A stretch of 64,000 nt of DNA from an uncultured Selenomonadaceae bacterium (lineage in GTDB: Bacteria > Bacillota > Negativicutes > Selenomonadales > Selenomonadaceae), in NCBI GenBank assembly GCA_905234705.1, contig CAJOIB010000010.1, forward strand, positions 6,616-70,615, written 5' to 3'. Position 1 is the stretch's first letter. Each line of letters opens with the position of its first letter. Below the pieces are notes generated by a model that ran no database searches, was not told the origin of the DNA, and saw only the letters and a list, made by a program, of their open reading frames with translations. Below, one piece after another: positions 14,084 to 27,702 of this stretch. Both the position numbers and the translations under genes were made by a program.

Positions 14084-15217
14084 TTGGAATTTTTTAATGC
14101 ATTTTCGGTATCACTACAGGCAGTTTGGAATGACAGCGGCTTTTCGGCATTCACCGTCGGCAACGGAATTATGATTGTCGTTGGAATTTTACTTTTATAT
14201 ATGGCGTTCGTTAAAGAATTTGAGCCGCTACTTTTAGGACCAATCGCGTTTGGCTGCATACTGGCGAATTTCCCGAACACAGGATTTTTCGGCGAAGAAA
14301 TGAACGTTATGCAGGCTATTCGCTATGGTATAAACTATGAAATTTTCCCGCCGTTGATTTTCTTAGGTATCGGCGCAATGACAGATTTTGGACCATTGCT
14401 CGCGCGTCCTTCGACTTTACTTTTGGGTGCGGCGGCTCAAATCGGCGTTTTCGTTGCATTAGCCGGCGCAATGATTGTAGGTTTCGACATTAAAGAGGCA
14501 GCGGCTATCGGAATTATCGGCGGCGCTGACGGTCCTACTTCAATTTATCTGTCAATAAAATTAGCCCCGCACTTACTCGGCGCAATCGCAGTCGCGGCGT
14601 ATACTTATATGTCGCTCGTGCCGATGATTCAGCCGCCCATTATGAAGGCTTTAACTTCACAAAAAGAGCGCGAAATTGTTATGACTGAGCTCCGCACGGT
14701 TACGAAATTTGAGCGCGTAGTTTTCCCTGTGGTTGTAACGATTTTTATCAGCTTGCTCTTGCCGCCAATCGCCGCATTGCTCGGAATGTTAATGCTTGGA
14801 AATCTCCTGCGCGAAAGTGGCGTAACAGACAGACTTTCAGACACCGCGCAAAATTCGCTGTGCAATATCGTAACAATCTTTTTGGCAACAGGCACAGGTA
14901 TGACGATGAACGCGAAAGATTTTCTTGTGCCAGAAACTTTGTTGATAATCTGCTTGGGCTTAGTGGCGTTTATGGGCGGCACTGCTGGCGGCGTTATTTT
15001 CGGAAAAATTATGTGCAGAATGTCGGGCTGGAAAGTTAATCCGCTTATCGGTTCAGCTGGTGTTTCTGCTGTTCCAATGGCGGCGCGCGTCAGTCAAATC
15101 GTTGGTATGAAGTCTAAGCCTGGCAATTATCTTTTAATGCACGCAATGGGACCAAATGTCGCGGGCGTTATCGGGACGGCTGTTGCTGCCGGTACGATGC
15201 TTGCTATGCTCAAATAA
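14084..15217 (+). CDS. Na+-translocating decarboxylase beta subunit (OadB/MmdB/GcdB family)
   Basis: 377-aa polytopic protein: ...[19 protein letters not shown]...[12 protein letters not shown]...[14 protein letters not shown].... TTG start with an AAGGAGG RBS. Confidence 0.85.
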
Positions 15218-15292
15218 ATTCTAAAACTTTGAAGGATAAATATTCTTCGCGGCGAAATGTAATTTAGTTACAAAATTTGTGGGGGCGATTTA

Positions 15293-16217
15293 ATGGCGAA
15301 CGATAAAGCACGCCGAGGCGACGAAACTGCCGGCGATAAGAAGGGTATTCTGCTTGAAACCGGTACTAATGAATTTGAAATTGTCGAGTTCAGCATTGGC
15401 AAAGTTAATTACGGAATAAATGTTGCGAAAGTCCGTGAAGTCATTCAGCGCGCGCCGGTTACCGCAATGCCGCAGGCTCACCCGTACATTGACGGGCTTT
15501 TTACCCTGCGCGGCAAAGCTATTCCGCTGGTTAATCTTCCGCGCTGTTTGAATGTGGCGTCCGGCGAAGAAGCTAAAAATATTATCGTTACTGAAATTAA
15601 TAATTACGGCATTTTGGAAAGACATGGAACCCGCGCCCGAAGTCGGCGACCAATCGCGCGTTGTCGGTATTATTAAAATGAGCGACCGAATTGTCCTGTT
15701 GCTCGACTTTGAAACGATTATTGCGGAAATTAATCCGGAAATTAACGCGAAACTTACCACGGTTGAAGACGCCACTGAAGATACCCGTTCGATGCGCTCA
15801 AATATTCACGTGGTTGTTGCGGAAGATTCGGCTATGTTGCGCGATTTGCTTGTTACGACTTTGCACGATTCGGGCTACAGATTTGTTCGCGATTTCGGCA
15901 ACGGTATGGACGCTTGGGAATATCTGCGCACTCTCGCCAACAAAGATGGTCCTATTCATATGCACGTGGGTATCATTGTTTCTGACGTTGAAATGCCGAA
16001 AATGGACGGGCACAGACTTTTGAAACTCGTCCGCGATAACGACCGCCTGCATGAAGTTCCATTTGTACTGTTTTCTTCGTTGATTAGTGAAGAAATGCGC
16101 TTAAAGGGCGAATCACTTGGGGCGAGCGCGCAAATTTCTAAGCCGGAAATTAATCAGCTGATTGATATTCTCGACAAGCTGATTTTCGGAAAAACTTTGA
16201 AGCCGGTACAAGATTAA
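15293..16217 (+). pseudogene. cheV: Chemotaxis protein CheV (CheW domain + receiver), disrupted by an internal deletion and frameshift
   Basis: Frame 1 encodes the CheW-like N-terminus (...TGTNEFEIVEFSIGKVNYGINVAKVREVI...IIVTEINNYGI). Frame 3, from about 15612, encodes FWKDMEPAPE...VVGIIKMSDRIVLLLDFETIIAEINP plus a complete receiver domain (VVVAEDSAMLRD...VSDVEMPKMDG...SKP). About 13-14 codons are missing at the junction. Confidence 0.75.
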
Positions 16218-16244: not shown

Positions 16245-16279
16245 AAAATGCATTCGTGAAAACGAGTGCGTTTTTTTTT
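16245..16279 (+). terminator. Rho-independent terminator after cheV, abutting the RBS of the next operon
   Basis: GCATTCG-TGAAAA-CGAGTGC hairpin (one G.U pair) with an A-tract upstream and a T9 run at 16271-16279. The GGAGAGGGG RBS starts at 16280. Confidence 0.65.
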
Positions 16280-16296
16280 GGAGAGGGGCAACTTCT

Positions 16297-19248
16297 ATGC
16301 AGAAAAATCTTACCACCGCGGAAAAAATTTCTGATTTGTTGCAGAGCCATTCAAATTTGGAAATTTCTAATCCGTACAGTTTGAAAAGCGACGAACTTGA
16401 AGCCAACGAAATTTGCTTTTACAAAATAAATCTGCTGACATTCGACGAAGAATATCCGCACCGCGAGGCGTTTGAAAATGTTTTGCAGAGCCTTGACAAT
16501 GCGGCTTTTAATTTCGTGTACATTCTCAGCGGCGACGAGCGCGGCATCGAACTTTATATCGGCGTGGTGAAAAATCACAACGAAAATCAGCCCGTCCTCG
16601 GCAAACTTTTGAACGCGGCGAATTACGGAAAAAATATCGCGGGCGCATTTGCGGGGAATTTCGGCGGCAGTTCCCTTGAAAAATTAACCGGTCAAAATTT
16701 GACAAACGCCGTGATAAATTCTGCGCGACAATTCAAAAACGCGGGCGTCATTGTCGGTATCCCGTCCGTCAACGAAACCAAGGACAGCAAATACGGTTTC
16801 CAGGGGATTGACAGGCTGATAAACAGTATGCTCGGCGCGAAATGGCGAATTGTGGTTGTTTGCGAGCCGGTGAATAAATCTGAAATTGCGAAAATCCGCA
16901 GCGAAGTTTACAATCTTTACAATGAATTAGCGCCGCTCGCCCGTCAATCCGTTCAAAAATCTACCAGCAGTAATCAGACGCTGAGCCGCGGCACAAACGA
17001 ATCTACCACTAAGGGCACGAATTATTCTGACAGCGAAAGTTCGTCCGATTCGCACGGCAAACAAAATGATAATTCAAATTCGAGCCACTCCGACCAGACA
17101 AGCAAATCTTACGGCGAAAGTACGACAAAAACCACCGGCAGCAATGAAAGTACCGGCGTCAGTTCCGGCAGTTCGAGCGCGGTTACTTTGGAAATTGCGA
17201 ATAAGCAGGCGGCGGAAATTATTGACTACATCGACAATGAACTTTTGGAGCGCGTGAAAATCGGATTCAGCCGCGGCTTTTTCAAAACTTCGATTTATTA
17301 TATGGGCGAAAAGCCGATTGACGCCGAGCGCCTCAAAGTTGGAATTATTTCGTTGTTTCAAGGCAGCGGCTCATCGTATAGTCCGTTGCGCGCGTATCCG
17401 CTGAATGTCGAGCGCGATTTTAAAATTTTAAACAGTTACCAAAGTTTTTACATCAGCAATGAAAATAATTTGCCAGAAAAATTGACGCTGGCGAGCCGCC
17501 CGCATTTTGACAGCCGCCTTGGTTTGAATACCTATTTGACGTCGGGCGAAGTCAGCCTAATCGCTGGTTTGCCGCAAAAAGAAATTCCTGGTATCACCGT
17601 GAAGGAGAGCGTCGAATTTGGTTTGAATTTTAATCAGAGCGACGGCGAGATTATTTTGGGCAATTTGATTCAGAAGGGGCGCGAATTGCCTAGCATTCCA
17701 ATGAAAATCAGCCGCGAAGTTTTGAGCAAACACGTCTTTATTGCTGGCGTGACTGGTTCGGGCAAAACTACGACCTGCCACAAAATTTTGACGGAAGCCG
17801 CGGTTAAATTTTTGGTGATTGAGCCTGCGAAAACTGAATACCGCGCGCTGATAAATTCGCCGCATTTCGGCAACGTCGTTGTCTTTACGGTGGGCGACGA
17901 ATTGACCGCGCCTTTTCGGTTGAATCCGTTTGAATTGGTGCGCGGCGAAAGTGTTTCTGCTCACGTCGATATGTTGAAGGCTACGTTTACTTCGTCTTTC
18001 CCAATGGAAGCGTCGATGCCGCAGATTTTGGAAGAGGCGATTTACAAAATTTACGAAGACAAGGGCTGGGACATTGACACAAATAAAAATTATCTGATTG
18101 AGGCGCGCGCCGATTATAAAATTGGTGATGAATTTCGCGCAGAATTTGATACTTTTCCGACGCTGACTGATTTTTTGACGGCGCTTGAAAAAATTGTTGA
18201 CGAAAAAGGATTTAGCGACCGCCTGCGCGACGATTATCGCGGCTCACTGATTAGCCGGTTTTCCAATTTGACGAAAGGCTCAAAGGGCGCGCTTTTCAAC
18301 TGTCGCCGCTCGATTGATTTTGAAAAACTGATTAATCAAAACGTCGTCATTGAAATGGAAAATTTGAAATCGGCGGAAGATAAGGCGCTGTTAATGGGAT
18401 TTATTTTAACGCGGCTGGCGGCGGTTATCAAACGGCGAAACAAATTGGATAAAAATTTCCGGCACATAACGCTGATTGAAGAGGCGCACCGGCTTTTATC
18501 GAAAGTTGAATTAGGCGACGGCGGCTCAAAGCGGACGGCGGTTGAAACTTTCACAGATTTACTCGCGGAGATTCGCAAGTACGGCGAAAGTCTGATAATC
18601 GTTGACCAGATACCGAATAAACTTGCGCCCGAAGTTTTGAAAAATACCAACACGAAAATAATTCACCGGCTTTTTGCGCGCGACGACAAAGAAGCGGTTG
18701 GTGATACGATGCTGATGGACGACAAGCAGAAAGAATATTTATCGGCGCTGGAAACTGGGCAGGCGATTATTTTTAGTGAAGGAATGCGCCGCCCCGCGCA
18801 CGTCAAGATTCAGAGCGTGACGGATACCGGCGACAGCGTTGTTGACAATGACGCCGTTAAATCGCAGTTTGTCAAAAATTTTGGCGCGTGGTATTGCGAT
18901 TTGGAAATTTCGCGCAGGTTTAATCGGGCGGTTTATGATTTGCTGAAAAAAATTGCGGTTGAATATCTCGACAAAAATTCATTGGAAATTGAAACTTTAA
19001 ATGCTGTGGCGAAAATTCGCTCGGCTGTGAAAAATTTCTGCGCGACTTTCGATTTTGAAGAAATTGCGGCGGCTGACGTTACGAAATATCTTGCGGAAGA
19101 ATTTACAAGACTCAAAGCAGGTGATAAAATTTTTGAACGGCGGCTTGAGAATTTTCTGAATTTGCTGATTGGCGATTTTACTTTGGAAAAAATTTCGGGT
19201 GACAGGGAAAATTTGAAGTTGCTGATAAATATTAAACGAGAATTTTAA
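16297..19248 (+). CDS. Large HerA/FtsK-superfamily (DUF87-like) ATPase with an unknown N-terminal domain and a Ser/Thr-rich linker
   Basis: 983 aa. Walker A is IAGVTGSGKTTT (about nt 17744-17776). Walker B/sensor is HITLIEEAHRLL (about nt 18463-18492). The HerA-type C-terminal block is LAEIRKYGESLIIVDQIPNKLAPEVLKNTNTKIIHRLFARDD. Residues ~215-300 are low-complexity Ser/Thr/Asn (GTNESTTKGTNYSDSESSSDSHGKQNDNSNSSHSDQTSKSYGESTTKTTGSNESTGVSSGSSS). Confidence 0.7.
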   Translation: MQKNLTTAEKISDLLQSHSNLEISNPYSLKSDELEANEICFYKINLLTFDEEYPHREAFENVLQSLDNAAFNFVYILSGDERGIELYIGVVKNHNENQPVLGKLLNAANYGKNIAGAFAGNFGGSSLEKLTGQNLTNAVINSARQFKNAGVIVGIPSVNETKDSKYGFQGIDRLINSMLGAKWRIVVVCEPVNKSEIAKIRSEVYNLYNELAPLARQSVQKSTSSNQTLSRGTNESTTKGTNYSDSESSSDSHGKQNDNSNSSHSDQTSKSYGESTTKTTGSNESTGVSSGSSSAVTLEIANKQAAEIIDYIDNELLERVKIGFSRGFFKTSIYYMGEKPIDAERLKVGIISLFQGSGSSYSPLRAYPLNVERDFKILNSYQSFYISNENNLPEKLTLASRPHFDSRLGLNTYLTSGEVSLIAGLPQKEIPGITVKESVEFGLNFNQSDGEIILGNLIQKGRELPSIPMKISREVLSKHVFIAGVTGSGKTTTCHKILTEAAVKFLVIEPAKTEYRALINSPHFGNVVVFTVGDELTAPFRLNPFELVRGESVSAHVDMLKATFTSSFPMEASMPQILEEAIYKIYEDKGWDIDTNKNYLIEARADYKIGDEFRAEFDTFPTLTDFLTALEKIVDEKGFSDRLRDDYRGSLISRFSNLTKGSKGALFNCRRSIDFEKLINQNVVIEMENLKSAEDKALLMGFILTRLAAVIKRRNKLDKNFRHITLIEEAHRLLSKVELGDGGSKRTAVETFTDLLAEIRKYGESLIIVDQIPNKLAPEVLKNTNTKIIHRLFARDDKEAVGDTMLMDDKQKEYLSALETGQAIIFSEGMRRPAHVKIQSVTDTGDSVVDNDAVKSQFVKNFGAWYCDLEISRRFNRAVYDLLKKIAVEYLDKNSLEIETLNAVAKIRSAVKNFCATFDFEEIAAADVTKYLAEEFTRLKAGDKIFERRLENFLNLLIGDFTLEKISGDRENLKLLINIKREF

Positions 19249-19264
19249 TTTAGGGGGAAGCTTT

Positions 19265-19900
19265 ATGTCAATTTTTGGAGCAATTTTTTCTGGGATAAGT
19301 AGCGTGCTGAGCGTAGTGTCAAATGTATTCACGCCGATTTTGACGAAAATTCTTGGACCGGCGCTTGAGAAACTTGGGCGGGCGTTTGAGGCTTTTTTCA
19401 AAGAATTGGGGTTGATTGAGCCGGAAGAGAAAGTTGAAGAAATTGGAGACCGCGCATTGCAGGCGGAAGTCGACGAAATTCATCCGGTTAAAATTGAAAC
19501 TTTCGACAATCACGAAAAATATTTGGCGGCGCTCAAAGAATATGAGCCGAGCGCTGAAAAATCCGCGCTGATTCCGGTTGACGATAAACTTCACAAAGGG
19601 CTTGAGGTTTTAATGGGGCTGGCGATTTCGCGCTACGGGCAGTCTATGAGCGAATTTGGGCAGATTATTTTGAATAACCCCGAATTTTACAGTCAATTTG
19701 GCAGGCTGGCGGAAATTGGCAGTATCGCCCGCGATAAAACTGAAACTTTCGCCGATATCGTGAATTACATTGCGGGCAAAAGTATGAGCAGCGAAAAAAC
19801 TGACACGGCGATTGACGCGCTCGTTGACATTGAGAAAAAAGTTAATCCGGAGGCGACTGACGCTGAAATTTTGAAAACTGTTAGCGATTTGAAAAAGTGA
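19265..19900 (+). CDS. Hypothetical protein with small-residue-rich hydrophobic N-terminus
   Basis: 211 aa. The N-terminus is MSIFGAIFSGISSVLSVVSNVFTPILTKILGPAL (Gly/Ser-zipper-like), followed by an acidic helical region. A GGGGGA RBS lies 16 nt after the upstream stop. Confidence 0.6.
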   Translation: MSIFGAIFSGISSVLSVVSNVFTPILTKILGPALEKLGRAFEAFFKELGLIEPEEKVEEIGDRALQAEVDEIHPVKIETFDNHEKYLAALKEYEPSAEKSALIPVDDKLHKGLEVLMGLAISRYGQSMSEFGQIILNNPEFYSQFGRLAEIGSIARDKTETFADIVNYIAGKSMSSEKTDTAIDALVDIEKKVNPEATDAEILKTVSDLKK

Positions 19901-20373
19901 GGCGATTGATTTTGTTGCAATATTTTTTAGTTATCTGCAAAAATCGGTTTTACGTTTACCGAACTGACGGCGCGCCGGAATATTTTGGTGGCAATGATTA
20001 TTTTGAATATGAGCAGAGCAAGATTCGCGAGGCGGCGGCTCAACTTGTCGAGGAAATTTTGAGCAACAACAATCTTGCCGACAGAAACGAATTACAATTT
20101 GCGCTGATTGAGAATAGCGACGCCGTGCGCAATGAGATTGTGCTGAAGGAACTGAAGAATTTGGTAGTTCAGCGTTACGCGGTGAATGATTTAGTTTACG
20201 CGGCGATGGTTGATTTGGCTAAAAATCCTGCGCTGTACATTCGCGAATTGGGCGTAAATTATGACGGCGAAAGTCACCATTTGGACGCGAATAATCCGAT
20301 GTGGCGGGGCGCTTATAGTTTGCTGGCGTTGACGATTGAGCCGATTGAATTGTTAAAGCGCGTGGGGAGGTAG
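19897..20373 (+). CDS. Hypothetical protein
   Basis: 158-aa ORF. Its GTG start overlaps the upstream stop (GTGA). No family recognised. The start codon is uncertain. Confidence 0.5.
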   Translation: MRRLILLQYFLVICKNRFYVYRTDGAPEYFGGNDYFEYEQSKIREAAAQLVEEILSNNNLADRNELQFALIENSDAVRNEIVLKELKNLVVQRYAVNDLVYAAMVDLAKNPALYIRELGVNYDGESHHLDANNPMWRGAYSLLALTIEPIELLKRVGR

Positions 20374-20377
20374 TTTT

Positions 20378-21922
20378 ATGGAAAAGATTATTTGTGGCAA
20401 ATGTCACGCCGAGAATAATGCAAAGCGGCATTTCTGCGCGAAGTGCGGGGCTTTTCTGCACACGGATTTTGACGCGAAAGTTTATGCGTTGCCGGAAGTT
20501 AAAATGATGCGCGTTGTGGAAAATTTATTGCGAGTTCCGCACCAGCCAATAAATTGGGACGACGTGACGGACGCTTACACGGCGAAGGCTGAAAAATGGC
20601 AGGCGCTGTTCAATGTCCCTGGAATGGGCGCGGAAACAAATTCTGCGGTTGTCGAGAAGATTGAAGATTTTTTGAATCTGTGCCGCAATGCCGATTTTCA
20701 AATTGCGTTCGTCGGTACGATTAAAACGGGCAAATCGACGCTGATAAATGCGCTGTTAGGCAAAGAATACGCGTCAATGGACGTGACGCCGGAAACCGCC
20801 GCTTTGACGAAATTTCGTGCCAGCCCGCGCGATTATGTTGACGTGACTTTTTACACGCAAAAGGAATGGGACAACCTTTGGGCTTCGCGCTCCAAGGACG
20901 CAACCGATTTTATGAAGGAATACGAATTGCTTGACGGCGATTCGCAAAAATCTAAATGGATTAATCAGCCGCAGCGCCATATCGAAATGGCTAACGAAGA
21001 TATTCAGCAGGAATTAAAAATTTGGTCGAGTTCACAGCGGGTGGAACATTATTTCGTCAAGGAAATTGAAGTTGGAATTTCGACGTTGCCGCGGGATTTT
21101 CCGGCGCAGGTTGTATTCGTCGACACGCCAGGATTATCAGATCCGGTTGCATATCGTTCGGAGCTGACGAAAAATTATATCCGGCGGGCAAATGCGGTTT
21201 TCGTTTGCGTCGAGGCGCAGAAAATGATGTTCGAGGAAATGAACACAATCCAATCGGTAATGTCGCTGTCTTCGCACGACAAGAGCAAAGTTTTTGTCAT
21301 AGCCACGCACTGGGACACATTGCACGACCCAGAAACGGATTGGGCAAAGCAGAAAAATTTTTACATTCGGCGCTTAACCGGACCGGCTTTTTATGACAAT
21401 CAGCAAATGGCGGCGGATAATATTTTGTATTCGGCGGCGTACATTTATAATCTGTGCAAAAATTTTCACGCGCTCGACCCGAATAACAGGGCTGATAAGC
21501 GGCAGATTCGCACGCTTGAAGATTTCGGCGATTATTTTGACTGCGCGCCCGACGATTTGCGGACGATTGGCGAAAAGACTAACATTGTGGCGATTAGGAA
21601 AATTATTCGCGACCGGCTCGCGGCGAATTATAAAAAATTTTTGGCGGGCGATATTAAGCGGAAATTTATGGACGTGAATTTTAATCTGAATCGCGTTGCC
21701 AGCGAAAATAAAGCGAGTATGATTGAGCGCTTAACGGCGTCCTATGCTGACGAACAAGAATTAGCCGCGAAATTGGATGAACAGCGCAAAAAATGCGATA
21801 ACGTCCGGCAAGTTTCCGACCAGCTTAACGAAATTATGAAGAAGGTTAAGCACAAGACTAAAACGCGCGCCGATGTTATTTGCGGGAAATTGCGGCTGAA
21901 ATTGAGCGAGTCGAAAAAATGA
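20378..21922 (+). CDS. Dynamin-like GTPase with N-terminal zinc ribbon
   Basis: Zinc ribbon is [20 protein letters not shown]1 is [16 protein letters not shown] (about nt 20714). G2-region Thr is [10 protein letters not shown]3 is [10 protein letters not shown] (about nt 21121). G4-like is VIATHWD. The C-terminal tail is helical and charged. Confidence 0.75.
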
Positions 21923-22863
21923 GCGCGGCTATAACTTTGCAGGAAATTTCTGCTAAATTGGATTATGGGCTGATAGGCGACGGCGCTTTGAAAGTTTCAG
22001 CGTTTAAATTTGCCGCGGAAGCTGATGAAAATTCTTTAGCGGTAGTACTCAGCGATAAAGAGGCGATTGACACTGCGGCGCGTGCGGTATTGACGACGCC
22101 GAGGATTTTGCCGATTGATAAAACTTTTCTGTACTGCAATTTTAAAAAGATGAGCGCGGCGATAGTTGACGTTGCGCGGCTGATGATTGACGCCGGAATT
22201 TATCCCGATTATGAAAAAAATTTTGAGCAGGTTGAAAAGCACTGCGCGATGTTCGGTAAAAATTTTGAGATTGGTGAAGGCAGTTACGTTGGCGCTTTTG
22301 CAAATATCGGCGAAAATGTTAAAATTGGCAGGAATTGTAAGATTGGCGCGGGCGTTTATATCGGCTCTGACGTTGAGATTGGCGACGGCGTGAAAATTCA
22401 TTCTGGCGCGCGGATTGGCGCTAATTGCCATTATCATTTTACGCAACACCACAAGCAGAAAAGTTTTTGCGGGATTGGGCGGGCGCTGATTGAAGATGGC
22501 GTTGAAATTGGCTACAACACGGTGATTCAGCGCGGCTCTTTGTCCGATACCGTGATTGGCGCGGGTACGATTATTGGCAATTTGGTTGAGATTGGACACG
22601 ACGTAAAAATCGGCAAAGATTGTTTGATAGTTTCGCAGGCGGGCATATGCGGCGGCGTGGAGATTGGCGAACGGGTTCAGATTTACGGGCAAGTTGGAAT
22701 TGCTGACAGGGTTAAAATTGGCAGCGACGCAACGATTATGGCGAAATCCGGCGTTACCAAAGACATTCGCGCAGGGCAAGTTGTTTCGGGAATGTTCAGC
22801 CGCAGTCATTTAGACGAATTGAAACGGCAGGCGAAATTTAGGAAACTGACTAAGGGGGAATAG
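21919..22863 (+). CDS. LpxD-like left-handed beta-helix N-acyltransferase (out of lipid A context)
   Basis: The ATG overlaps the dynamin-like stop (ATGA). It has an LpxD-type N-terminal domain ([43 protein letters not shown]), hexapeptide repeats, a conserved catalytic-His context ([10 protein letters not shown]) and an LpxD-type C-terminal helix ([17 protein letters not shown]). Confidence 0.7.
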
Positions 22864-22866
22864 ACT

Positions 22867-23658
22867 ATGGGCGGAGGCGGTGGCTGCGGAGATATTTGTT
22901 GCATTACGCATTGCGGCTTTTGCTGTGTTTTTAAATGCAGTGACTGCGGCGATTGTTGCGTGGGTCATTGTAGCGGAGATTGTGGCGGTACTCGTGTTTC
23001 CAGTGGCGGTGGCGGTTGTTCTGATTATCAAGAAGATCCGCAAACTCGGCACGCGGAGATTATTGCTAACGAATTGGCGGAAATGAAGAAGCGCTCGACT
23101 GAGGACGCCAAACGCGAAGAGGACGCCATTCTCAAAGACATTAACGAAACCATGGACGAATTTATTGATTGGCTCAAAAAAATTAACAGCGAACCGTACG
23201 GCGGGCGCAGTCTGAATATTAATATCACGAAAATTAATGAGCTCAATGAAGAATTGCGAAACGCGGTTATCGGCTCAATCGGCAAACATTTGGATTCTAA
23301 GCTGGTTATGACTGACGAAAACGTCAAGCTGATTCTTTCCGATATGAATGATAAGACGCGCAAGAAAAAATTTGACGAGTTTTATCGGCAAACTCTGCGC
23401 GACGCTATTAGGAATTTGATTAAAATTATTGAAGATTCCGTTCAAAAACAATCTGAGAGTATCGAGCGCGAAATTCAAAATCGCATTAATGAAGTCCAGC
23501 AAAGTATGTCCGAAGAGGCGGGCGCGTTTGAGGAACTTCAGCAGATTAAACAGCAGAAAAATTTAGGTATGGCGGAAAAACGCGTTGAATATATGTACTA
23601 CGAAAATCTGTGCGATATTATGTTCGACCAGCTGAAACTTTCCGGCATTAAAAGGTGA
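22867..23658 (+). CDS. Cysteine-string / coiled-coil protein
   Basis: 263 aa. The N-terminus is MGGGGGCGDICCITHCGFCCVFKCSDCGDCCVGHCSGDCGGTRVSSGGGGCSDY, with 13 Cys in 51 residues. The remaining ~200 aa are charged heptad-like helices. An AAGGGGG RBS lies 8 nt upstream. Confidence 0.7.
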   Translation: MGGGGGCGDICCITHCGFCCVFKCSDCGDCCVGHCSGDCGGTRVSSGGGGCSDYQEDPQTRHAEIIANELAEMKKRSTEDAKREEDAILKDINETMDEFIDWLKKINSEPYGGRSLNINITKINELNEELRNAVIGSIGKHLDSKLVMTDENVKLILSDMNDKTRKKKFDEFYRQTLRDAIRNLIKIIEDSVQKQSESIEREIQNRINEVQQSMSEEAGAFEELQQIKQQKNLGMAEKRVEYMYYENLCDIMFDQLKLSGIKR

Positions 23659-23664
23659 TTCGCT

Positions 23665-25011
23665 ATGCTCAATTTAATTTCCGGAAATGAAAATATTCTT
23701 GCGCTGATGTACGCTATGTCGAGCGATTTGGATTTGAAAGATAATTCCGCGCGTTTGGAAAATCTTCGCGCAGTGGTGGAAAATTCGGCGGAAGTCAAGC
23801 CGTCGGTTTTCAATTATCACGTCGAGGCGGCGGAAAAAATTTTGATTTACAATACGCTTTACAATTCAATGACTTGGTTAACGAAAGAGGAATTTGCTCA
23901 ACTTGGCGGCGAAATTTTTGATGACGAATTGCGGCGGAATTTTCTTGAGAGCGGAATTTGCGTGGCGGCGAATGTTGACGAGCGGGCGAATTATCATAAG
24001 TGGCGGATTCTTTTTCAAAAAAAGTCCGAGCATTTGTCGGTGAATATTACCACGACGCTGAAATGCAACGCGCGCTGTCCCTATTGCTACGAGCACGGCG
24101 TCAAGCACATTGACTTTGATGACACTAAGATTGACGCGCTGATAGATTTTATTAAGCGGCACAAAAAAAATTCGCCGGTTAAACTGAATTGGTTTGGCGG
24201 CGAACCTTTTATGAATCCGAAAATTATTGACACCGTGACGCGGCGGCTCGGCGAAATCGGCTTTCCATTTTTCTGCTACGCCATTACCAACGGAAATTTA
24301 TTGACGCGGCAAATGATTAATACCAAATTCAAGCAATGGCATATTCGCGGCGTTCAGATAACTTTGGACGGCACGGCGGAACAATACGCGGCGCGCAAAA
24401 ATTATACCGGCAATCAGCGCGATGTTTTCAAAAAAATTTTAAATCGTATTCAATGGCTCGCTGAAGCAAATATTCACGTTGACGTGCGGCTGAATATCGA
24501 CCGCCAAAATCTGTGCGATATGCTCAATCTTATTTACATTTTGCAGGCGCGTTTTGACGGCGAAAAAAATATTTGTTATTATCCGGCGTTTGTTACGGGC
24601 TTGCAGGATAAATTGACTGAAACTGAGAAATTAGATTTTGTCAAGGAAATGTTTAACGCGGTTGCCAATTCCGCCAAACTCAGCATTACAAATCGGCTGT
24701 ATTCTTTCCCGCGCAGTATTCCGTGTATGCGCAATGATCCGCAGTCATTTTCTGTTGATGTTTACGGGCGGATTTATAATTGTGAGCATTTGGTCGGGCG
24801 CGCTGAAAAATCGTTAGGAACTTTAAAACGTTTGCCGACAAAAATTAATGACGCGCGGCTTGAAGAAAATCTGCGCGAGGAATGCGGAAGTTGCGTATTT
24901 CTGCCGAAATGTATGGGCGGCTGTGCGTCGAATTTGGAAACCGGCGATAGCGCGTGCCTGATTGAAAAATATTTAATTAAAGCATATATGCAGTATATGT
25001 GCGAACGCTAG
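23665..25011 (+). CDS. Radical SAM enzyme with C-terminal SPASM domain (peptide/protein maturase type)
   Basis: The CxxxCxxC motif is CNARCPYC (nt 24064-24087). The SPASM motifs are CMRNDPQSFSVDVYGRIYNC (Cx13Gx4C) and CGSCVFLPKCMGGC (Cx2Cx5Cx3C). The N-terminal ~110 aa resemble the RRE/PqqD-like leader-binding region of such maturases (ILIYNTLYNSMTWLTKEEFAQL...LESGICV). Confidence 0.85.
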   Translation: MLNLISGNENILALMYAMSSDLDLKDNSARLENLRAVVENSAEVKPSVFNYHVEAAEKILIYNTLYNSMTWLTKEEFAQLGGEIFDDELRRNFLESGICVAANVDERANYHKWRILFQKKSEHLSVNITTTLKCNARCPYCYEHGVKHIDFDDTKIDALIDFIKRHKKNSPVKLNWFGGEPFMNPKIIDTVTRRLGEIGFPFFCYAITNGNLLTRQMINTKFKQWHIRGVQITLDGTAEQYAARKNYTGNQRDVFKKILNRIQWLAEANIHVDVRLNIDRQNLCDMLNLIYILQARFDGEKNICYYPAFVTGLQDKLTETEKLDFVKEMFNAVANSAKLSITNRLYSFPRSIPCMRNDPQSFSVDVYGRIYNCEHLVGRAEKSLGTLKRLPTKINDARLEENLREECGSCVFLPKCMGGCASNLETGDSACLIEKYLIKAYMQYMCER

Positions 25012-25020
25012 GAGGTAAAA

Positions 25021-25383
25021 ATGGACGACATTGCAAAAATTTTGGAACAGCAGGAAGAAATTTTACGCTCAATACACCGGCTGGAGGAAGAAGTTAGCCT
25101 AATCAAATTTTTACACCACAGTCAGTACGACGAAACAAATGCGCGGCTTGAAATGTTCGAGCGGTCATTGCGGCAAATCGACGAACAACTTGCACTTTCA
25201 AATATGAGCCAAGAATCGCGCGACGACAAAATAAAAAAATTGCTTAGTGAATTTCAGCGTGCGAATCAATCGCGGCGGCTGAATATGATTGAAGAATTGC
25301 TCCGGTTAATCGCCGCCAATCAGATAATGGATTCGCTCGAACCGCCGAAAAAACCGCGGGGCAATAAATCGCAGAAAAAATAA
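25021..25383 (+). CDS. Small coiled-coil protein, hypothetical
   Basis: 120 aa, predicted helical and charged (ILEQQEEILRSIHRLEEEVSLIKF...), with a basic tail (PPKKPRGNKSQKK). An AGGAGG RBS lies upstream. Confidence 0.55.
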   Translation: MDDIAKILEQQEEILRSIHRLEEEVSLIKFLHHSQYDETNARLEMFERSLRQIDEQLALSNMSQESRDDKIKKLLSEFQRANQSRRLNMIEELLRLIAANQIMDSLEPPKKPRGNKSQKK

Positions 25384-25400
25384 TCTTGGGAGGAATTTTA

Positions 25401-26795
25401 ATGAGCATACTAGCTTCGGTCGTAGTACCGCACCCGCCTATCATTTTGCCGGAAATTGGCAAGGGCGAAGAATCCAAAATCGCCGCAACTACCGCCGCTT
25501 ATAAAGAAATTTCAAAGCGCGTGGTCGAACTTGCGCCCGATACGATTGTTATCACCAGCCCGCACTCGATTATGTACGCGGATTATTTTCACATTTCGCC
25601 TGGCGAATCGGCTAGCGGGAATATGGCGAGATTTCGCGCGCCCGAAGTCGATTTGACTATTAACTATGACGTTGAATTTGTTGACAAATTGAGCGCGGCG
25701 GCTATGGCTGAAAATATTCCCGCCGGTAAAATTGGCGAGCGCGAAAAAAGTTTAGACCACGGCACGATGATTCCGCTTTATTTTTTGGAAAAAGCAGGTT
25801 TAGATTTTGACGCGGTTAAATTTTTGCGCATAGGGCTTTCTGGTTTGCCCGCGGCGGCGCATTATCATTTTGGGCAGGTTATTTCAAAGGTTGCGGACGA
25901 ATTGAACAGGCGCGTTGTATTCGTGGCGAGCGGTGACCTTTCGCACAAACTCAAAGCGGATGGTCCTTACGGTTTTGTTGAAGAAGGTCCGAAATTCGAC
26001 GCCGAGGTTATGGAAAATTTATCCGACGAAGATTTTTTGAAATTGTTGACGATGGATAATACGATGTGCAATCGCGCGGCTGAATGCGGCTTGAGGAGTT
26101 TTTGGATAATGGCGGGCGCGCTCGATAAAAAATCCGTTCAAGCTGAAAAATTGTCCTATGAAGGACCTTTCGGCGTTGGCTACGGCGTTGTTTGGTTTAA
26201 CATTAACGGCGTTGACAGTTCGCGGAATTTTGCCGCCAAGCTTGAAAATTTTAAGCATGAAGAATATTTAAAGCGCATTGAAACTGAAGACGAATACGTG
26301 AAACTGGCGCGCTACAGCCTTGAAACTTACATTAAGACGCACAAGGCGGCGGAAATGCCCAAAGATTTGCCTGCTGAAATGTTGAATCGGCGTTCGGGAA
26401 CTTTCGTCAGTCTTCATAAAGACGGGAATTTGCGCGGCTGTATCGGAACATTTTTGCCGACAACTGAATCTATCGCGCAGGAGATTTTGCAAAACGCCAT
26501 TTCTGCCTGTTCGAGAGACCCGCGCTTTTCGCCGGTCGAAGAATCCGAAATTGAAGACCTTGACATCAGCGTTGACGTTTTGTCTGAACCGGAGCGAATT
26601 TTTGACGTCAAAGATTTGGACGCAAAAAAATACGGCGTTATCGTCGAGAACAACGGACGCCGCGGTTTATTGTTGCCGGATTTGGAAGGCGTTAATACCG
26701 TGCAAGAGCAACTCGCCATCGCTATGAAAAAAGGCGGTATCCCCGCCAATGAAAAAGTTAACGTGTGGCGTTTCCAAGTAATTCGCCATCATTAA
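25401..26795 (+). CDS. Fusion of class III extradiol dioxygenase-like (LigB/Memo superfamily) domain and AMMECR1 domain
   Basis: N-terminal domain: VVPHPPIILPE...ITSPHS...SLDHGTMIPLYFL...VASGDLSHKL. C-terminal AMMECR1 domain: SGTFVSLHKDGNLRGCIGTF...ACSRDPRFSPV...YGVIVENNGRRGLLLPDLEGV. Start set at the ATG at 25401 after a GGGAGGA RBS. Confidence 0.8.
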   Translation: MSILASVVVPHPPIILPEIGKGEESKIAATTAAYKEISKRVVELAPDTIVITSPHSIMYADYFHISPGESASGNMARFRAPEVDLTINYDVEFVDKLSAAAMAENIPAGKIGEREKSLDHGTMIPLYFLEKAGLDFDAVKFLRIGLSGLPAAAHYHFGQVISKVADELNRRVVFVASGDLSHKLKADGPYGFVEEGPKFDAEVMENLSDEDFLKLLTMDNTMCNRAAECGLRSFWIMAGALDKKSVQAEKLSYEGPFGVGYGVVWFNINGVDSSRNFAAKLENFKHEEYLKRIETEDEYVKLARYSLETYIKTHKAAEMPKDLPAEMLNRRSGTFVSLHKDGNLRGCIGTFLPTTESIAQEILQNAISACSRDPRFSPVEESEIEDLDISVDVLSEPERIFDVKDLDAKKYGVIVENNGRRGLLLPDLEGVNTVQEQLAIAMKKGGIPANEKVNVWRFQVIRHH

Positions 26796-27232
26796 ATCGC
26801 CGCATCTTCGTAATTTTCTTCATCGTCATAAGATGGAGTATTTAAATTGTCCCAAAAAATTCTGTAGTTCATACTGGATTTGACTTGCCCGCGCGCCGGA
26901 CAATCCGCGTCTTTGTGCGTGAAAATGTGATGAACTTCCTGCCCCGACGGAACAATTAATTCTTTCGGATAAAAATGAACATTTCGCGCAGACCAAATCC
27001 AAAAGTCGTTGTTGTTCACTGCGCGAATGTTTTCCAGTAAAAAGTGCGTGATTCTGGCATCCTGGTCGCCGGAATTTATGAAGTGCCCGTATAAAACCGC
27101 TTGCCCTTCATTCAAAATGAGTTTATCGGCTTGAAATTTCAAATTCGCTCCGGCGCTCGCAACGCCATTTGCAAAAATAAAAATCGCAACAGCCATAATC
27201 GCCGCAACAAAAAAATTTTTCAAGATAATCAC
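26792..27232 (-). CDS. Hypothetical exported protein
   Basis: 146 aa with an N-terminal signal/anchor (FFVAAIMAVAIFIFANGVASA). No family recognised. Its stop overlaps the stop of the convergent AMMECR1 gene (TTAA). Confidence 0.5.
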   Translation of the reverse strand: MIILKNFFVAAIMAVAIFIFANGVASAGANLKFQADKLILNEGQAVLYGHFINSGDQDARITHFLLENIRAVNNNDFWIWSARNVHFYPKELIVPSGQEVHHIFTHKDADCPARGQVKSSMNYRIFWDNLNTPSYDDEENYEDAAI

Positions 27233-27237
27233 GCCCC

Positions 27238-27702
27238 TTAAAAAATTTCTTGCGCCCGCTGTTCAAATCGTGTAACAATTTCCGTGTGAAGTGATTCGTT
27301 GAGCTCCATTAACGCCAGCCAAAAATCACTCCGGCGCGGAAATTCTTTTTTTGGCAACATCGTTTCGACAAAATCTAATGCGTCGTCGCCGAAGCAAATT
27401 TTTCGCACAATCGCCGTTACCGCCACGCCAAAAGTTATTATCGACGGTATCACCCACGGCAGGGCGTTCGCCACAATCGGAATTAATTTTTTCAGCGCAA
27501 GGTATATCGCCGACGCCAGCACGCCGATTAATACGCAAACCGTTTTGAAAAAAACCATAACCGCGCCAATGAATACGCCCGCCAATACTGCCAGCGCTTG
27601 AAAAATCAGCCGCAAAAATCCCAGCCCGCAAATCAGCAAAATCGCCGCCGCTATCACAATTCCAACCATAACTAACGCCCCTCTCGATTTAAAGCGTGTC
27701 AA
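27238..27702 (-). CDS. Hypothetical integral membrane protein
   Basis: 154 aa with about four hydrophobic helices and a soluble C-terminal tail. Located downstream of upp. Confidence 0.5.
   Translation of the reverse strand: MTRFKSRGALVMVGIVIAAAILLICGLGFLRLIFQALAVLAGVFIGAVMVFFKTVCVLIGVLASAIYLALKKLIPIVANALPWVIPSIITFGVAVTAIVRKICFGDDALDFVETMLPKKEFPRRSDFWLALMELNESLHTEIVTRFEQRAQEIF

Follow-up and report, generated by a model that had tools for sequence, protein, structure and literature searches.

Bacterial dynamin-like GTPases have been reported from plausibly defensive accessory loci, among them Eleos/'Dynamins' (LeoA, LeoBC) and DynA of Bacillus subtilis. Dynamin defense systems were described by Millman et al. 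(10.1101/2022.05.11.491447) and DynA, a dynamin-like protein (DLP), has been shown to act at the membrane against phage (PMC8844932, PMC12998192). The anti-phage systems SIR2-HerA and DUF4297-HerA, together with mad8 of MADS, share a hexameric-type DUF87 ATPase domain of the FtsK/HerA superfamily. Among radical S-adenosylmethionine (rSAM)/SPASM enzymes, PapB forms Cys-to-Asp thioethers in CX3D motifs (PMC9413430) and CrpC installs ranthionines on the Cys-rich protein CrpA, a precedent for such chemistry on a protein substrate (PMC13692751). Here we compare these systems with a locus in a 64,000-nt stretch of DNA from an uncultured Selenomonadaceae bacterium (hereafter the window, to which coordinates refer unless a locus is named). 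Homologs of all of these enzyme types, together with an LpxD-like acyltransferase, are encoded there in a run of nine plus-strand open reading frames (ORFs; g1–g9, 16297 to 26795). We find that the first eight of these are a horizontally mobile accessory cassette of ~9.1 kb (16297–25383) that is inserted between cheV and a LigB-AMMECR1 fusion gene. We propose, with about even confidence, that the cassette builds a membrane-acting conflict or defense machine around a dynamin-like GTPase and a modified helical protein.

The composition of the cassette falls outside every family and system with which it was compared. PADLOC v2.0.0 returned no named defense or candidate system for the locus: g2, g3, g5, g8, and g9 had no match, g1, g4, and g7 matched generic HerA, LeoA, and pVip domains only, and g6 yielded weak coiled-coil matches. 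In the literature that was searched, no paper was found that describes this gene set. Both results agree with the original prediction, made from the DNA letters alone, which had named no described system of this composition; its motif-based family calls were likewise all confirmed by Pfam and NCBIfam matches.

A scan of species-representative genomes identified 40 loci, and the full gene set was recovered by tblastn in ~25 of them. The gene order of the cassette recurs in ~25 distinct species-level genomes of gut and rumen anaerobes affiliated with the Bacillota, Synergistota, Spirochaetota, Bacteroidota, and Fibrobacterota, plus the candidate group UBP6. Carriers comprised Selenomonadaceae (the window genome being that of a rumen member), Mitsuokella, Anaerovibrio, Lachnospiraceae, Roseburia, Oribacterium, Eubacteriaceae, Fretibacterium, Treponema, Prevotellaceae, Fibrobacter, and a UBP6 genome; Mitsuokella jalaludinii DSM 13811 (L046) and Roseburia sp. 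AM59-24XD (L061) are carriers that have been cultured. Because the same order is found in so many distinct genomes across phyla, the adjacency of these genes is far beyond chance, and the conservation of gene neighborhood amid different flanks that had been suggested as a check on the locus is indeed observed. For example, gene tables of Clostridium neonatale, a Lachnospiraceae metagenome-assembled genome, and a Lachnospira eligens-like contig reveal the same order between unrelated flanks: an ATPase (~984 aa), a ~205-aa protein, a ~154-aa protein, a dynamin, a left-handed beta-helix (LbH) acyltransferase, a ~240-aa protein, a small coiled-coil protein, and an rSAM enzyme. The gene encoding the dynamin GTPase was identified in only ~6 of 25 genomes of the genus to which the window genome belongs. 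In Fretibacterium (Synergistota), the halves g4–g7 and g1–g3 are permuted and both are retained. The Fretibacterium locus (L045:5876-7978) also contains a RelB-like and PIN toxin-antitoxin pair between g5 and g6 and a protein that by eye looks like an S1-domain protein between g6 and the small coiled-coil gene.

The boundaries of the cassette were resolved by comparison with relatives. In a complete genome of the same genus that lacks the block at this site (G003), cheV lies ~87 nt from the g9 ortholog, and the spacer between them comprises a hairpin, a T-run, and a Shine-Dalgarno sequence laid out as in the window spacer between cheV and g1. Because cheV adjoins g9 in G003 and the two spacers share this layout, 16297–25383 is a ~9.1-kb insertion and g9 is a resident gene. 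The entire block occupies the same site in two close relatives (G007 and G005), in which flank proteins are 99–100% identical to those of the window whereas cassette proteins are only 65–96% identical. For the pair formed by the window and locus L021 of G007, the flank proteins (OAD beta and CheV; window 14084-16217) are 99–100% identical and the cassette proteins 86–96% identical; this lower cassette identity reflects either faster evolution or exchange by recombination.

These comparisons reduce the nine-gene unit of the original prediction to eight genes and remove the LigB-AMMECR1 gene from its annotation. In addition to standing next to cheV where the block is absent, g9 (a LigB/Memo-like plus AMMECR1 fusion at the right junction; 25401 to 26795, or from an alternative TTG start at 25386) accompanies the cassette only in the two closest relatives and is absent from all other loci. 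It matches TIGR04335 (133.7 bits; cut-off 99) and TIGR04336 (26.1 bits; cut-off 26) and belongs to AmmeMemoRadiSam, which comprises an AMMECR1 protein (A), a Memo-like protein (B), and a TIGR04337 rSAM enzyme. The cognate TIGR04337 partner is encoded on another contig of the same genome (G000:C71:6709-7536, locus L082; 244.7 bits, cut-off 220). We also considered g7 as the AmmeMemoRadiSam partner of g9 and rejected it, since g7 is not of the TIGR04337 family and the cognate rSAM gene is the one on C71; this in turn argues against g9 as a cassette member. The TIGR04337 match on C71 contains one in-frame TGA.

The product of g4 (20378–21922; 514 aa) is a bona fide dynamin-family GTPase that matches Pfam Dynamin_N with 70.5 bits (cut-off 27). 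It comprises an N-terminal Cys4 zinc ribbon followed by motifs that include TPET, a G3 motif (DTPG), and a G4-like motif (THWD), and in an alignment of 17 homologs the G1–G4 motifs and the four zinc-ribbon Cys are invariant. Given this invariance, and the presence of Walker A and B motifs in g1, both g1 and g4 are predicted to be active NTPases. The nearest solved relative of g4 is a DLP from Campylobacter jejuni (5owv; E = 6e-19, profile over residues 37–508). A total of 849 homologs were found, hundreds of them at ~50% identity.

The similarity of g4 to Eleos and DynA extends to the presence of a DLP in a plausibly defensive locus and little further. Eleos pairs LeoA with LeoBC, in two or three DLP genes of one operon, whereas the cassette encodes one short, 514-aa zinc-ribbon DLP from a single gene; g4 scores 33.3 bits against NF041922 (LeoA), for which the cut-off is 325, and its PADLOC matches to LeoA and LeoBC are partial (E = 3e-12 to 9e-9). 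DynA is a two-headed protein of ~1200 aa, and g4 scores 20.5 bits against NF052648, far below the cut-off of 1600. Neither Eleos nor DynA is accompanied by counterparts of the seven further conserved genes of the cassette.

The ATPase encoded by g1 (16297–19248; 983 aa) belongs to the FtsK/HerA superfamily, with a DUF87 match of 33.9 bits (cut-off 23.2), a Walker A motif (GVTGSGKT) at residues ~476–483, and a Walker B motif ending in IEEAH. Preceding the ATPase domain is an N-terminal region of ~450 aa that comprises a ~215-aa domain, a Ser-rich linker (residues ~219–300), and a further stretch. NCBIfam matches of g1 to HerA, CedD, and ser_rich_anae_1 are all below cut-offs, and PADLOC matches to mad8 and HerA are at the level of the ATPase domain only. 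Fold neighbors of the N-terminal region in the Atlas were exclusively other uncharacterized DUF87 ATPases. The protein also falls outside the anti-phage HerA families (NF042943, 57 bits versus a cut-off of 800; NF042944, 46.9 bits versus 850), and the SIR2, DUF4297, and MADS partners of those systems are absent from the cassette, whereas the ~450-aa N-terminal region is unique to g1. Orthologs of g1 were identified in 27 loci.

The next two genes, which had been regarded as orphans, are conserved core families. The product of g2 (19265–19900; 211 aa) comprises a hydrophobic head of ~50 aa rich in Gly, Ala, and Ser followed by a conserved soluble domain (LGLIxPE..GDKALQAE); it has no family in Pfam, NCBIfam, or PADLOC, and an alignment reveals its conservation in 28 loci. 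The product of g3 (19897–20373; 158 aa) is present in 35 loci, including minimal variants of the cassette, and is always encoded directly upstream of the GTPase. Its AlphaFold2 (AF2) model (predicted local distance difference test [pLDDT] score of 94) is a single RNase H-like/actin-like half-domain, with weak Foldseek matches to actin, NTPDase, PanK, and RuvX (ASKHA/RNase H-like folds) and, also weakly, to type VII secretion-associated proteins. Nothing named was retrieved for g3 in the Atlas, whose own model of the protein is poor. A prediction of the g3–g4 complex scored 0.51, with a best control of 0.00, contact agreement between runs of at least 59%, and partner pLDDT of at least 83. Of 80 solved complexes, 58 attained the mark used for complex predictions, as did 2 of 110 mismatched pairs; scores at or below 0.60 account for only 7 of the 80 and for both mismatches. 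The support from the complex prediction is thus weak; g3 is probably an adaptor of g4.

The protein encoded by g6 (22867–23658; 263 aa) starts with Met-Gly and has a head with 13 Cys in 56 aa, followed by a linker and a helical body of ~200 aa; in its AF2 model the head is disordered and helices span residues 58–108 and 162–231. Among orthologs the ~200-aa body is the best conserved part, and the N-terminal head is variable (25–55 aa). The g6 family comprises 323 clusters at E ≤ 0.001, and the Met-Gly start (Gly2) is found in 90 of 107 full-length representatives, across both Cys-rich (51) and Cys-poor, amphipathic (52) heads. The protein encoded by g7 (23665–25011; 448 aa) is an rSAM/SPASM enzyme (Pfam Radical_SAM, 46.6 bits versus 29.5; SPASM TIGR04085, 39.1 bits versus 27) with the cluster motif CNARCPYC and C-terminal SPASM cysteines. 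Its best family matches are maturases of Cys-rich peptides, although all of its best equivalog matches are below cut-offs: CefB (141 versus 600), Clo7bot, TIGR04463, and PapB (96.7 versus 340).

The type of g6 head covaries with the presence of the rSAM gene. All g6 heads in rSAM-bearing loci (at least 19) are Cys-rich (3–14 Cys) and carry CC[VI]x[D/N] units, and all heads in rSAM-less loci have at most one Cys and are Gly/Ala-rich and hydrophobic. On a tree of g1, no fewer than two independent changes, all of them with starred support, are needed to account for the rSAM-less loci, such that head type and rSAM presence match perfectly over at least two independent losses in which a Cys-poor hydrophobic head replaced the Cys-rich one. 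The spacing C-x3-[DN] occurs 64 times in g6 heads compared to 21.7 ± 4.0 times in shuffled sequences. The pair therefore has the features of a ranthipeptide-type system, namely an adjacent Cys-rich substrate with repeated Cys-to-Asp/Asn spacing that is co-inherited with the enzyme. Taken together with the PapB and CrpC precedents, the covariation and the motif enrichment suggest that g7 likely cross-links the g6 head by thioether (ranthionine-type) bridges, and the covariation backs the link between a Cys-rich coiled-coil protein and an rSAM/SPASM enzyme that was originally predicted. Like the cassette, the freyrasin locus pairs an rSAM/SPASM enzyme (PapB) with a Cys-rich substrate bearing C-x3-D-type repeats (PapA; PMC9413430), and CrpC/CrpA demonstrates that a protein can also receive such cross-links (PMC13692751). 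However, in ranthipeptides the modified segment is C-terminal to a leader, whereas in the cassette it is the extreme N-terminus of a 260-aa helical protein. Unlike ranthipeptide pairs, g6 and g7 also sit in a dynamin/ATPase/acyltransferase cassette in which the pairing is dispensable, with two or more losses in which the head was replaced.

In Clostridia and Fibrobacter, a separate ORF whose end overlaps the rSAM start by 8–20 nt encodes the first ~45–50 aa of g7 (MDxIISAN...; L025:13836-13973, L026:13231-13380, L028:13531-13674, and L056:13566-13718), and in Selenomonadales, Treponema, and Fretibacterium this segment is fused in frame. We considered the 45–50-aa ORF that precedes the rSAM gene as a precursor of a ribosomally made and post-translationally modified peptide (RiPP) and rejected it, since it lacks Cys and matches the N-terminal segment of g7 as fused in the window.

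The acyltransferase encoded by g5 (21919–22863; 314 aa) shares with LpxD of lipid A synthesis its left-handed beta-helix fold, its domain order, and its catalytic His (as aligned to 2iu8), and is marginally above the cut-off of a broad subfamily (NF002060; 210.8 bits versus 207). However, it is below the equivalog cut-off (TIGR01853; 197.3 bits versus 242.5) and is a paralog of a true LpxD encoded elsewhere in the genome (contig C25; 351.7 bits). LpxC was not found in five cassette-bearing genomes of Lachnospiraceae and Eubacteriaceae, which implies that a lipid A intermediate is not the substrate of g5 in those hosts and, together with the TIGR01853 score, sets g5 apart from LpxD of the Raetz pathway. 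N-acylation of an amine with acyl-acyl carrier protein (acyl-ACP) as donor is the known reaction of LpxD enzymes. The gene for g5 is always the immediate upstream neighbor of g6, and in three genomes, all of Selenomonadaceae (L034:11077-12669, L036:11547-13250, and the same position in L037), g5 is fused to a second g6-type protein of 220–250 aa at its N-terminus that has its own MGGGGGCC head (hhalign against g6: probability 99.8%, E = 6e-28). The neighborhood, the fusions, the conservation of Gly2, LpxD chemistry, and the LpxC-less hosts make it attractive to suggest that g5 acylates the exposed N-terminal Gly (or a Cys) of g6, a tentative assignment to which we give somewhat less than an even chance. 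The Met-Gly-Cys-type N-termini of g6 resemble the dual-acylation signals of eukaryotic N-myristoyl/palmitoyl 'MGC' anchors, although neither an N-myristoyltransferase nor a DHHC enzyme is present.

The last cassette gene, g8 (25021–25383), encodes a coiled-coil protein of 120 aa that has no family in Pfam, NCBIfam, or PADLOC and ends in a C-terminal amphipathic motif (..LLRLIAANQIMDSLE). Orthologs of g8 were identified in loci of Selenomonadales. In other lineages, small coiled-coil proteins with an R[LM]LLxNxVM[DE] tail occupy a slot between g6 and g7; BLASTP of g8 from Selenomonadales against these proteins found nothing, and hhalign aligned only the C-terminal motif (E = 0.0024, probability 12%). 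These proteins appear positionally equivalent to g8, and their homology to it is tentative.

We interpret the recurring minimal core as a dynamin-like GTPase accompanied by two further proteins, one helical with a Met-Gly head and the other a small coiled-coil protein. An elaborated form is present in the window, which has in addition a HerA/FtsK-like ATPase, g2, g3, an LpxD-like enzyme, and an rSAM enzyme. A minimal variant comprising a dynamin plus a headed protein is present in a cultured strain, the L. eligens type strain ATCC 27750 (L084). The cargo at 423197-427004 of its megaplasmid (NC_012780.1) comprises genes for a protein of 394 aa, a dynamin of 608 aa, and a protein of 251 aa beginning MGFFSS..., plus an IS256. 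A different reduced variant lies next to ispG in G013 (L023/L032, 2-5310) and comprises g3 and g4 (70% identical) and, after them, an ORF of >1030 aa that matches no Pfam family; g1, g2, and g5–g8 are absent. For three distant g6 relatives, the contigs were too short to judge the full context.

Several aspects of the distribution of the cassette bear on its function. To characterize its surroundings, up to three ORFs were surveyed on each side of 25 loci (120 ORFs). WYL/WCX regulators accounted for 7 of the 120 flank ORFs as raw counts with no matched control, five of them directly downstream and two upstream of the cassette. Other common flank families were Cro/C1 (XRE) helix-turn-helix regulators, large Ser/Thr kinases matching PD-T4-6 models, KaiC-like proteins, DEAD/UvrD/SLFN helicases, N6 methylase/Eco57I, HEPN, and MkoA, to which the gene tables of three loci add a NERD helicase, AbiH, a toxin-antitoxin pair, and a transposase. 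In the L. eligens lineage, the flanks of locus L028, which lies on a metagenomic contig, are 93–96% identical to the ATCC 27750 megaplasmid, and the interior differs: L028 holds the full cassette and the megaplasmid a different dynamin cargo. Such patchiness, flank genes, and swapping at a hotspot are the behavior of defense-island cargo. No tblastn match was detected among 50,697 phage records, and on plasmids only a 35%-identical variant was found. A gene for a Ser/Thr kinase of ~1500 aa (PD-T4-6 models) together with a metallo-beta-lactamase gene was observed at L026/L027 (1-5180) and in the upstream flanks of L050, L051, and L061; this pair, recurrent directly upstream of the cassette in several Lachnospiraceae and Eubacteriaceae, may be a neighboring system or an accessory part.

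In light of the genomic context, the patchy distribution, the swapping at a hotspot, and the precedents set by DynA and dynamin defense systems, a role in defense or conflict is the most likely function of the cassette. We suggest that the core would consist of the g4 GTPase, probably with g3 as its adaptor, acting with the headed helical protein g6 and perhaps g2, whose short N-terminal heads would insert into or disturb a membrane. The enzyme g7 would cross-link the Cys-rich CC[VI]x[D/N] head of g6 through thioether bridges, a RiPP-like modification of a 260-aa protein, and g5 may also act on g6, for which acyl-ACP-dependent acylation of the N-terminal Gly amine, or of Cys, is the most economical guess. 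The ATPase g1 could supply sensing or motor work. Upon entry of an invader such as a phage or other mobile element, the assembled machine would remodel or breach the cell's own membrane, making the cassette a candidate new defense or conflict system. Eukaryotic dynamin and its N-BAR partners serve as a working analogy only, in that a dynamin-family GTPase is paired with a helical protein that engages the membrane through its N-terminal segment.

A more specific version holds that the cassette is a new membrane-acting immune system in which a dynamin and a BAR-like partner are combined with ranthionines installed by the rSAM enzyme and N-acylation of Gly by an LpxD-derived enzyme, with the HerA/FtsK-like motor triggering or powering the response on infection. 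We consider this full combination unlikely. If true, the acylation of an N-terminal Gly by an LpxD-derived enzyme would be a bacterial counterpart of eukaryotic N-myristoylation/palmitoylation.

A number of observations weigh against the proposed machine or its parts. Defense by membrane remodeling is inferred from neighborhoods only; nucleases, proteases, TIR and SIR2 proteins, and canonical pore-forming effectors are all absent from the cassette; and the window copy is flanked by housekeeping genes and lacks a regulator. A Foldseek search of g6 against the PDB returned no match at E ≤ 0.001, and the top, non-significant rows were BAR domains and Vipp1 at E = 0.04–0.9, with E ≥ 0.04 and a template modeling (TM) score of ~0.2 for the BAR domains, which makes them a lead at most. 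The g6 head of the window is itself somewhat atypical in having 13 Cys and zero exact C-x3-[DN] matches. With respect to g5, its LpxD-like N-terminal domain aligns over the uridine-binding part, and because this domain is retained a UDP-sugar substrate is still possible. Finally, minimal variants (L080 and L084) keep the Met-Gly head beside the dynamin with no LbH acyltransferase nearby, which indicates that the conservation of Gly2 does not require g5.

The same evidence can be read in terms of membrane maintenance, repair, or vesiculation, with the cassette as a DynA/BDLP-like module that acts with BAR- or PspA-like partners in response to envelope stress and not to invaders, and that spreads horizontally as a niche adaptation of gut anaerobes. 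A GTPase accompanied by helical proteins with membrane-type heads would suit such a module, as would the BAR and Vipp1 rows that top the (non-significant) fold matches of g6, the placement of the window copy among housekeeping genes, and the protection that DynA also affords against membrane-active antibiotics (PMC12998192). However, the cassette is patchy within one genus, its position is used for swapped cargo at one hotspot in the L. eligens lineage, WYL/XRE regulators and defense genes are frequent in its flanks, and, when close relatives are compared, its conservation is below that of the flanks (86–96% versus 99–100% protein identity). We therefore regard a repair module as an unlikely alternative to a conflict or defense machine. 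A role in spore or envelope assembly, which had also been proposed, was rejected as unlikely given a host range that includes Treponema, Prevotellaceae, Fibrobacter, and Fretibacterium.

The chemistry predicted for g7 raises a second alternative, in which the locus is a RiPP or bacteriocin cluster. The precursor would be g6, with an N-terminal core as in bottromycin that is cross-linked by g7 and acylated by g5; the head would then be cleaved at the GYHPGP-type linker and released or exported to kill competitors, with the NTPases serving export or self-protection. The matches of g7 to RiPP maturases, the ranthipeptide-like C-x3-[D/N] motif in the head (PMC9413430), the conserved linker that follows a variable head, and the resemblance of Cys-poor heads to amphipathic, leaderless-bacteriocin-like peptides are all in keeping with this possibility. 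Yet the cassette has no conserved gene for a protease, an ABC exporter, or immunity, and the best-conserved part of g6 is a 200-aa helical body, a size well beyond that of any leader or follower peptide. Five further conserved genes, including two for NTPases, have no role in known RiPP pathways, and variants that lack the rSAM gene retain the whole remaining cassette. A RiPP cluster is consequently quite unlikely.

A protein or DNA translocation apparatus, in which a VirB4/TraG/FtsK-like g1 and its membrane partner g2 export modified g6 or g8 to the surface or to neighboring cells, is less probable again, and we consider it very unlikely. Weak matches of g1 to TrwB, VirB4, and FtsK, Atlas neighbors named TraG P-loop proteins, the hydrophobic head of g2, and the weak type VII secretion rows of g3 point in this direction, but the similarity of g1 is at the level of the ATPase domain only. 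Moreover, inspection of the cassette revealed neither a polytopic membrane protein that could form a channel nor a relaxase, pilin, or signal peptide, and minimal variants without g1 and g2 keep the dynamin and the headed protein. That the genes are unrelated and adjacent by accident, with no joint function, has a negligible probability given the recurrence of all eight families in one order in ~25 genomes from the named phyla and UBP6, translationally coupled junctions, the fusion of g5 to a g6-like protein, and the covariation of g6 and g7.

If the cassette is indeed a defense or conflict system, it would contribute a mechanism that employs several enzymes, is directed at membranes, and is widespread among anaerobes of the gut and rumen, which are poorly covered by the model-organism screens behind most known defense systems. 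Whatever its role, the cassette is predicted to offer a natural example of thioether chemistry of the RiPP type carried out on a structural protein of full size and is a candidate for N-terminal protein acylation by an LpxD-like enzyme. Since minimal pair variants exist in cultured strains, a dynamin with a helical partner that bears a membrane-inserting head may be a recurrent bacterial module.

The layout of the locus is compact. An ORF listing of the window supports the original description of nine same-strand ORFs spaced by −4 to 17 nt: from g1 to g9, the junction gaps are 16, −4, 4, −4, 3, 6, 9, and 17 nt, where the last value presumes that g9 starts at ATG 25401, which is preceded by GGGAGGA. 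Of two stop/start overlaps that had been reported at 19897 and 19919, the former (GTGA; g2/g3) is present and the latter was a misprint for 21919 (ATGA; g4/g5). A Shine-Dalgarno sequence had been assigned to every ORF and is clear for seven of the nine, with none for g3 and g5, the genes with overlapping starts. Gene spacing is suggestive of a single transcription unit, and consensus scans for promoters and terminators returned no more sites than in shuffled sequences. The block had been said to begin at 16245; its first gene starts at 16297, and 16245–16296 corresponds to the cheV terminator and a Shine-Dalgarno sequence. The left junction itself (16248–16296, plus strand), as read from the sequence, comprises a terminator-like hairpin and T-run of cheV followed by the Shine-Dalgarno sequence of g1 (GGAGAGGGG).

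As had been predicted, cheV upstream of the cassette appears decayed and is followed by a hairpin and then a T-run. The gene (15293-16217) occupies two frames, one for CheW (15293-15676) and one for REC (15552-16217), with the switch at ~15614; its counterparts in the relatives G007 and G003 have both halves in a single frame, separated by ~42 nt more. The window cheV thus appears to carry a frameshifting deletion of ~41 nt, unless the split is an assembly error. At the other end of the locus, a convergent ORF (26792-27232) overlaps the stop of g9, also as originally described. It is the first of two convergent minus-strand ORFs in 26792-27702 that encode proteins of 146 and 154 aa without a Pfam family; both are kept at 85–91% in G007, and the first has a hydrophobic N-terminus.

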